64,000 bases of DNA from an uncultured Candidatus Poseidoniales archaeon (lineage in GTDB: Archaea > Thermoplasmatota > Poseidoniia > Poseidoniales > Thalassarchaeaceae). Made by a program: the position numbers and the translations under genes. The stretch covers positions 57,108 through 121,107 of the forward strand of contig CAZXZO010000002.1 of NCBI GenBank assembly GCA_964645485.1, given 5' to 3'. Positions within the stretch are counted from its first letter, which is position 1. Each line of letters begins with the position of its first letter. The notes beneath the pieces were generated by a model. That model was not told the origin of the DNA. It ran no database searches and was given only the letters and a program-made list of their open reading frames with translations. Positions 977-1,682 of the stretch are shown in pieces.

Positions 977-1058
977 GCAGGGGTACCCGAGCGGTCAAAG
1001 GGGGTGGGCTCAAGATCCACTGCTTAGTGCTTCGCAGGTTCGAATCCTGCTCCCTGCA
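977..1058 (+). tRNA. tRNA-Leu (anticodon CAA)
   Basis: Acceptor GCAGGGG/TCCCTGC plus discriminator A. Anticodon arm GTGGG-CTCAAGA-TCCAC (CAA at 1011-1013), long variable arm, T arm GCAGG-TTCGAAT-CCTGC. CCA not encoded. Confidence 0.97.
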
Positions 1059-1542
1059 CTTTGATTACTCATGCCTTCATCGTGCAGAGAGCGCAAAACG
1101 CTAACGTCGAACCTGCTTCGCAGTGCATCAGGTTGCTGTGCAACCTTCGCATCCTCAACCTTCCCTCTGCTCTCAGACGCTTCCATCAGTCCAGATTGAG
1201 GATTTTGAATCCTGCTCCCTGCATCAGATTTCATAAGATTTCAACAGATTTAATCAGGACAGGATTCGAACTCCGCGAGTTTTAATCCATCTTACTTCAA
1301 CAAAACTCGCTGGAGTTTGCCGCTGGACTGACCAAAGGGAAGGAAGCGTCAGACCGTTTGAAATCCTGCTCCCTGCACTTTGATTACTCATGCCTTCATC
1401 GTGCAGAGAGCGCAAAACGCTAACGTCGAACCTGCTTCGCAGTGCATCAGGTTGCTGTGCAACCTTCGCATCCTCAACCTTCCCTCTGCTCTCAGACGCT
1501 TCCATCAGTCCAGATTGAGGATTTCGAATCCTGCTCCCTGCA
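1043..1542 (+). repeat. Four direct copies of the tRNA-Leu 3' end (att-like core), including a 181-bp near-perfect duplication
   Basis: AATCCTGCTCCCTGCA at 1043-1058, 1208-1223, 1362-1377 and 1527-1542. Segment 1043-1223 equals 1362-1542 except one base (TTTTGAAT vs TTTCGAAT). The last copy continues CCA. Confidence 0.95.
1059..1526. mobile_element. Putative non-autonomous mini-elements or integration scars at the tRNA-Leu 3' end (A, B, A')
   Basis: Three hairpin-rich ~140-150 bp segments, each bounded by the tRNA 3' core. No integrase in the window, so mobility is inferred only. Confidence 0.45.
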
Positions 1543-1682
1543 CCAACCAATTTCATTCATTCTCCTTCCTCACTGCAAATTATTCTATCTAAATGAATGT
1601 TGACAAAGGCAGTAAAGGTAAGTGAATTCTCCAATATAAAAATCACTTTTCCAATTGAACAATATGTGGTTAATTCATCATA

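Follow-up and report, generated by a model that had tools for sequence, protein, structure and literature searches.

Results

Three gene-less units are stacked behind tRNA-Leu(CAA)

The stretch of DNA analyzed here (the window) comprises 64,000 nucleotides (nt) from an uncultured Candidatus Poseidoniales archaeon, and the feature under study is a series of repeated tRNA 3′ ends that follows its tRNA-Leu(CAA) gene. The source assembly (G000) is a short-read metagenome-assembled genome (MAG) of 55 scaffolds and 1.94 Mb, with 82% completeness and 44% G+C, in which the window corresponds to C2:57108–121107. Its small-subunit (SSU) rRNA is archaeal, matching the archaeal SSU model along the entire length with 1467 bits. 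The tRNA-Leu(CAA) gene was detected at 977–1058/1059 (forward strand, as for all features below; ARAGORN and Rfam RF00005, 51.5 bits). Its last 16 nt (1043–1058, without an encoded CCA) recur as exact copies at 1208, 1362, and 1527, i.e., with periods of 165, 154, and 165, in agreement with an original prediction made by a model from the sequence. Beyond these four copies the 16-mer occurs nowhere else in the assembly, and a single extra copy would be expected by chance in 64 kb at a frequency of only ∼3e-5. CCA follows the core only at the most distal copy (1527–1545), as the prediction had also noted.

Between these core copies lie three hairpin-rich modules of ∼150 bases each, in the order A, B, A′, with direct core copies flanking each unit on both ends. 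The units begin at the base following the discriminator of tRNA-Leu(CAA) and contain no protein genes, the only open reading frames (ORFs) across the repeats being overlapping ones of at most 100 amino acids (aa) on both strands. The tRNA-end copy is exact over 16 nt in all three units and over 20–21 nt in A′. Unit A (1059–1223) was delimited by repeats I3, I17, and I19, by its fold, and by covariation in alignment A1; it consists of a spacer (1059–1082), two blocks that are antisense to the tRNA end (1083–1092 against the acceptor strand and 1107–1116 against the T-stem), a hairpin at 1130–1146, a second hairpin with a degenerate signature loop (1151–1158/1196–1203), and the second sense core copy (1208–1223). 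Unit B (1224–1377), delimited by TRF, repeat I9, its fold, and RNAalifold on alignment A2, has a spacer with three AGATTT repeats phased at 10 nt (1222–1257; TRF), an antisense T-arm copy (1260–1271), a long hairpin (about 1267–1318), a signature hairpin with a 22-nt conserved loop (1325–1346), and the third core copy (1362–1377). Unit A′ (1378–1526) is near-identical to A and is listed without a terminal core, since the fourth core with CCA (1527–1545) is the native 3′ end, joined to the native downstream flank. The general plan of the units is thus a spacer of 13–47 nt, an antisense T-loop/acceptor copy, a hairpin body, a T-loop-like stretch, and a sense tRNA end.

The positions 1043–1226 and 1362–1545 form a 184-nt repeat (D1) of 99% identity, which differs at 1206/1525 (T/C) and at 1224/1543 (T/C), the latter being the first base after the core. 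The single-base difference predicted between the first and third segments therefore holds for the segment proper but not over the 184 nt, where there are two. A repeat of this kind in a short-read MAG raises the question of an assembly artefact, i.e., a repeat loop crossed once too often; the repeat exceeds typical k-mers, and sister arrays at tRNA-Gln, tRNA-Phe, tRNA-Gly, and tRNA-Leu(GAG) contain 100-N scaffold gaps, but this explanation is highly improbable given that the 1206/1525 variants are each linked to their own junction, that both an A-to-B and a B-to-A junction are needed for the graph to hold B, and that an independent assembly of another species (G011) also has A, B, and a stub of A. 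Because sister arrays hold N gaps, unit copy numbers are minimum estimates.

Empty and filled sites in relatives

Genes flanking the array are conserved across the genus, and the corresponding site is empty in G017, G014, G009, G012, G016, G013, G005, G010, G019, G018, and G007. In these genomes the tRNA ends in ...CCCTGCACCA and is followed directly by the homologue of the window flank after 1545, and the upstream ORF stops 26–27 nt before the tRNA. Among metagenome contigs with this tRNA, all from marine metagenomes and none from the same species, six of 11 have an empty site. Since relatives show empty sites, the stretch 1059–1526 must have been inserted, and the distal copy with CCA represents the native end of the gene, as had been suspected. 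Together with the lack of encoded proteins, the empty sites also bear out the earlier proposal of stacked, non-autonomous insertions at the tRNA 3′ end. The gene stays intact while its native CCA end is pushed downstream, because the element brings the last 16 nt without CCA.

The filled sites exhibited variable unit number and order across genomes, which had been anticipated for tRNA-Leu(CAA) loci. G011 carries the same 5′ module as the window (described below), followed by A, B, and 26 nt from the start of another A, while a B unit lies directly behind the tRNA in G004 (with metagenome contig L114, in which the distal core is missing), G006, and G001. In a tree of the upstream gene, G000 and G011 are not sisters, and G011 falls with G017 and G014, both empty, in a weak grouping; the filled genomes not being grouped, repeated gain, precise loss, or transfer must have occurred. 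Elsewhere in the genome, tRNA-Phe and tRNA-Gln have A units that are lacking in relatives of 90–92% flank identity, and these units are on that account recent gains. A separate insertion of ∼315 nt was observed in G009:C68 (L005), between a CCA-ending tRNA and the conserved flank and ∼300 nt after tRNA-Leu(CAA); it is unrelated to the units and has no tRNA-end repeat.

Two unit families recur behind many tRNA genes

The same architecture was found in this genome behind Gln(CTG), Phe, Pro(GGG), Pro(TGG), Leu(GAG), Leu(TAA), Gly(TCC), Ser(GGA), Ser(CGA), and Thr(TGT), and at two contig ends, such that the family is present behind about a third of the genome's tRNA genes. In a blind test of all tRNA genes, a complement of the last 28 nt within 90 nt downstream was strong in nine of the 28 genes that could be assessed, plus Phe, with z scores of −3.3 to −7.0 for unit-bearing genes and −1.3 to +1.5 for all others. 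The antisense target copy is exact over all 17 nt at Phe and all 14 nt at Gln.

Covariance models were built from the B-type (R1) and A-type (R2) alignments and applied to 151 sampled genomes of the order. In the window, R2 matched 1121–1223 (unit A, E = 1.7e-31) and 1440–1542 (unit A′), and R1 matched 1259–1365 (unit B, E = 5e-26). R1 matched 11 of the 151 genomes and R2 nine, with both families in eight; among 58 high-quality genomes, B was detected in none and A in one. The 12 carriers of units are G000, G001, G005, G011, G079, G084, G088, G122, G136, G137, G148, and G149. This patchy distribution fits invasion rather than inheritance. Where the locus was readable, 23 of 27 R1 loci lay 16–345 nt behind a tRNA and 15 of 18 R2 loci 3–377 nt behind one, and more than a dozen tRNA species precede the matches; homologues of both segments beside other tRNAs, in the genome and in relatives, were what the original prediction had led one to expect. 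The co-occurrence of A- and B-type units over four genera hints at a shared factor or joint transfer.

The block of identity between proximal and distal tRNA-end copies measures 14–22 nt and may extend 4–6 nt past the tRNA end. Mismatches in the distal copy occur only left of this block, as expected of an element-borne arm and not of a duplicated target. A also carries a degenerate B signature in reversed orientation (repeat pairs I5–I10), which makes B in part an inverted relative of A. The modules constitute two related, structured families.

Three loci were recorded in passing. In G011:C8 (L165, about 1430–1640), a solitary B unit directly follows a protein gene, and the 1.5 kb upstream contain no tRNA gene; the unit terminates in a tRNA-Leu-like 3′ end followed by CCA. 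In G088:C8 (L209, about 1350–1610), from another family of the order, an A-type unit lies behind an intron-containing tRNA missed by ARAGORN and holds a 20-nt antisense copy of the tail of that tRNA. A partial match to the 3′ end of 16S rRNA at G000:C10:37709–37829, 3.7 kb downstream of the full gene, represents a duplicated rRNA tail.

Unit folds co-vary

The small hairpins listed in the original prediction are present in the sequence and belong to the predicted fold, and two of them are backed by covariation across paralogues. In the A-type alignment (A1, eight copies), 96% of cells are paired in two helices and 11 of 17 pairs exhibit double changes, a count reached by none of 500 shuffles. 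For the B type (A2, eight copies), RNAalifold paired the antisense with the sense T-loop copies so as to close the unit, with compensatory changes in 19 of 33 pairs. The fold of unit B has a z score of −3.6, while that of unit A alone is no better than shuffled sequence (z = −0.63). Compensatory changes are also found between orthologous G000 and G011 copies. A mini-stem within the loop of the B signature co-varies (GC/GC, CC/GG, AC/GT), which points to a folded single strand. Conserved, co-varying hairpins combined with an antisense target copy indicate that a folded single strand, of DNA or RNA, is seen by selection. Deletion scars, an origin the original prediction had offered as an option, do not account for segments that fall into two conserved structured families with compensatory base changes. 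Rfam gave no match to the units or to the bacterial look-alikes described below, except for tRNAs and otherwise a sub-threshold tsr24. Likeness of the signature loop to a kink-turn (K-turn), a hammerhead, or a D-arm, judged by eye, was dropped for lack of support.

A further module at the 5′ end of the same gene

The tRNA-Leu(CAA) gene is also altered at its other end. A 13-nt copy of tRNA positions 2–14 (795–807, an exact match to 978–990) is the displaced native 5′ end; the native upstream flank that follows the ORF stop still adjoins it. Between this copy and the gene lies a C-type module (808–976) with a hairpin at 809–835, a GCTTCGC mini-hairpin, and a promoter-like stretch; it provides a new upstream region as well as new first bases of tRNA-Leu(CAA). 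The module is missing at 16 of 19 same-genus loci, where the gap between ORF and tRNA is 26–27 nt, as compared to 209 nt here. A stack of homologous modules precedes tRNA-Leu(GAG) on C18, and the module has a homologue in G011 too. The stretch 808–976 is thus inserted DNA as well, here at the 5′ side of the gene. Within this module, no significant match antisense to the start of the tRNA was detected (z = −1.2).

Signature hairpins and comparable units outside the order

A 21-nt pattern representing the unit B loop gave 42 exact matches in species-representative genomes versus ∼4 expected by chance. Most lie at the tip of ∼140-nt palindromic repeats of Sporosarcina and Planococcus (L066–L106) with ends GTTGATT...AATCAAC, and further sites are in Planctomycetota, Treponema, and a Halobacteriales MAG. 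No protein family recurs beside the 42 bacterial signature sites. These small palindromes, resembling miniature inverted-repeat transposable elements (MITEs) or repetitive extragenic palindromes (REPs), have the hairpin tip in common with unit B but, unlike the units here, are mostly dispersed and not tRNA-linked. In a Yoonia MAG (L099, 2055–2221), an 80-nt unit with the pattern lies behind tRNA-Ala and ends in the tail of that tRNA; model R2 matches it with E = 1e-4.

The closest parallel in organization is provided by Escherichia coli, whose tRNA-linked repeats (TLRs) number 22 units distributed over ten loci, with the last 18–19 bp of the upstream tRNA or 5S gene repeated at the end of each unit (Egan & Landy 1978; Rudd 1999; Stenum et al. 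2021, PMC8144298). They have been known since 1978, but neither an origin nor, in most cases, a function has been assigned to them; three are processed small RNAs (sRNAs) (PMC8144298). In both cases, one to five gene-less units of ∼100–180 bp lie directly behind a tRNA or 5S gene and end in a copy of that gene's tail. At the E. coli tyrV locus, three 178-bp units were found. Their core starts in the T-loop, with AATCC, at the same position as in the archaeal units, and every unit also includes 10 nt of the tRNA end in antisense. However, model R2 gave E = 1.2 on the tyrV locus, i.e., no detectable homology, and therefore the two are of the same kind but not of the same family. The E. coli copies also include CCA, and TLRs are conserved in enterobacteria, whereas the archaeal units are patchy and polymorphic. 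In the archaeal array, tRNA-linked insertion modules without genes take a new form. The earlier interpretation was largely right as to the nature of the array, but it missed this TLR parallel, along with the antisense copies, the 5′ module at 808–976, and the genome-wide spread.

Resemblance to cis-mobilizable elements (CIMEs) extends to att (attachment site)-like flanks from a tRNA 3′ end, lack of integration or transfer genes, and tandem stacking at the target; CIMEs stack in tandem at tRNA genes by accretion (Guedon et al. 2017, PMC5704250). CIMEs are, however, kilobase-size decayed integrative and conjugative or integrative and mobilizable elements (ICEs/IMEs) with no conserved fold, while the units here, at 115–220 nt, are ten to a hundred times smaller and form defined families in which the hairpins co-vary and the target is also present in antisense.

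A classical element was available for comparison in G011:C35 (L044, 2732–14291), where a 10.2-kb element is integrated in tRNA-Ala(TGC) between att repeats at 2790 and 13053, with a 295-aa integrase beside attL and a second integrase gene (417 aa) directly after attR. Its 16–17-nt core runs from T-loop to discriminator, and starts at the same T-loop position as that of the units; here, too, the native end is displaced. As with tyrosine-integrase elements in general, a replacement gene end is supplied and the native end is displaced distally. In contrast, classical elements of this type encode their own integrase, as does the G011:C35 element, and the units do not; the arms of that element share nothing with A or B.

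Search for a mobilizing enzyme

In line with the original prediction, PF00589 found no tyrosine recombinase in the window; the sole match in the assembly lies 31 kb upstream of it. This recombinase gene, in the region C2:25768–26280, is syntenic, closest to archaeal XerA and of the housekeeping type, and the XerA-like gene is the only one in nine of 12 unit-bearing assemblies. Serine recombinases were found only in G005 and G011, not linked to units. In five genomes of the genus, no Y1 transposase or TnpB scored above cut-off, and no rolling-circle Rep or other single-strand machinery was found. A larger element with the same arms was not found at the genus integrase, Cas4/Cas1, and serine-recombinase loci fetched or on viral contigs.

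One locus was initially a casposase candidate, a Cas1 gene beside tRNA-Phe in G001:C35; this reading was rejected, as NCBIfam identifies the product as a Cas4/Cas1 fusion and its ends have nothing in common with the units. The locus (L063, 1–7129) is a CRISPR-Cas locus abutting the 3′ end of tRNA-Phe; the fusion scores 578 bits with NF049935, an ORF of 1475 aa is also present, and the contig opens with CRISPR-like repeats of 35 nt. Cas1 is missing from most of the genomes of the genus searched.

Discussion

The units described here were inserted at an att-like core, preserve the tRNA gene, have been gained and cleanly lost, and keep their fold under selection. We consider the best account of 1059–1526, with a probability of roughly 0.55, to be three stacked non-autonomous integrative mini-elements of the TLR/CIME kind, moved by a recombinase acting in trans. 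Gain and precise loss would proceed through conservative recombination inside the 14–22-nt identity block, and the catalyst would be a recombinase not encoded by the element, most likely of the tyrosine type; such an enzyme is favored because the core geometry resembles that of the integrase element in tRNA-Ala of G011. The two near-identical copies A and A′ may reflect re-insertion, or local duplication or gene conversion across the repeated cores, and a sister module has entered the 5′ end of the same gene.

Several observations weigh against this account. No mobilizing enzyme was found, the assembly (at 82% completeness) having only the XerA-like tyrosine recombinase. Extra integrases do not track the units across the 151 genomes, being present in three of 12 carriers and 17 of 139 non-carriers, and no integrase-bearing relative with the same arms was found, those of the G011 element being unrelated; mobilization by a tyrosine integrase, as the original prediction proposed it, is on both grounds no more than a candidate mechanism. 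Four pattern scans of viral contigs returned only chance or tRNA-derived matches. A double-stranded circle of 150–165 bp is small for the classical attP × attB reaction, and the classical model leaves an exact antisense target copy in every unit unexplained. As to the enzyme, its absence is weak evidence, because MAGs lose mobile DNA.

The antisense copy is the starting point for a second explanation, possible but doubtful, in which integration proceeds via a folded single strand in the manner of CTXphi, of integrative mobile elements exploiting Xer (IMEX), or of attC sites. The core and the antisense copy, 13–47 nt apart, would fold as a mimic of the target, and a recombinase, possibly the host XerA-like protein, would swap one strand pair, with replication completing the process. 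In tandem CTXphi prophages, a core is followed by a short spacer, an inverted core, the body, and a core, and attP1 and attP2, which are inverted, mimic dif when folded as single-stranded DNA (PMC3442271); the integrated layout here is the same. IMEX elements and attC cassettes likewise have no recombinase of their own, foldable inverted target-like sites, tandem arrays, and conservation of structure rather than sequence (PMC3442271; PMC4792948). Every unit-bearing tRNA has a strong tail complement within 90 nt downstream, the stems co-vary while the loops are fixed, as with attC, and the units lack a recombinase while nine of the 12 carrier assemblies have only the XerA-like gene. On the other hand, a tRNA end is targeted instead of dif or attI, no IntI-type integrase was found, and neither were Rep, a Y1 transposase, or other single-strand machinery in the five genus genomes. 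The antisense copy of unit A also complements the 5′ strand of the gene's T-stem, which is lacking in the element's sense copy, and that of B-type units has only ∼5 target-specific bases. By analogy with these systems, the units might belong to a class of elements, spanning the domains and devoid of genes, that integrate in folded single-stranded form and hijack a ubiquitous host recombinase, Xer-like in this archaeon, a suggestion that we regard as tentative.

An explanation without any dedicated enzyme is unlikely. It holds that trailer structures, of RNA or DNA, spread by ordinary recombination (uptake of foreign DNA anchored by homology to the conserved tRNA, switches of template in the palindromic T-loop, and unequal crossovers of one core with another) and persist through the value of their transcript, for instance in processing or stability, as has been suggested for some TLRs of E. 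coli. In its favor, the junctions between target and body lie, on either side, within the universal T-loop palindrome TTCGAA, the compensatory changes between G000 and G011 orthologues indicate selection on structure, and three E. coli TLRs are known as processed sRNAs (PMC8144298). It is also plausible that transcription reads through the array, because no run of at least five T occurs between the tRNA and 1545; in the empty G017, G014, and G012, a T5–T6 run lies 10–30 nt after the gene. However, the same bodies recur behind more than ten tRNA species with ends matched to the local tRNA, which excludes local duplication as their source, the distribution is very patchy (none or one of the 58 high-quality genomes), and the fold of unit A does not exceed that of shuffled sequence.

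Target-duplicating transposition, by mini-casposons or by other cut-and-paste elements with terminal inverted repeats, is very improbable. The sense and antisense copies do resemble terminal inverted repeats of 10–20 nt, and duplicated blocks of 14–17 nt at some loci are near the casposon length, casposon target duplications being 14–15 bp. Against this, the identity blocks are variable (14–22 nt), the distal copies differ from the target left of the block, and there is no duplicate of the spacer separating the tRNA end from the left "inverted repeat"; the only Cas1 in the five genomes is the Cas4/Cas1 fusion beside CRISPR repeats, and Y1 transposase and TnpB are absent above cut-off.

With the present array, the TLR type of construction extends to a marine archaeon, where its gain and loss are evident; empty sites, recent insertions, defined families, and co-varying structure come with it, as does a hairpin tip in common with bacterial repeats. 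The old question posed by TLRs thereby becomes testable as a problem of mobile DNA, namely which enzyme acts and whether its substrate is single- or double-stranded. For annotators, the array carries a warning that extra tRNA 3′ ends and promoter copies near tRNA genes of such MAGs are real and break short-read assemblies. Should the folded-strand explanation be true, the units would be the tRNA-end counterpart of IMEX elements and integron cassettes, and that explanation would supply a mechanism for the E. coli TLRs, unexplained since 1978. For the Poseidoniales themselves, the units are a source of variation at tRNA loci in archaea abundant in the ocean, and a marker for strain typing.

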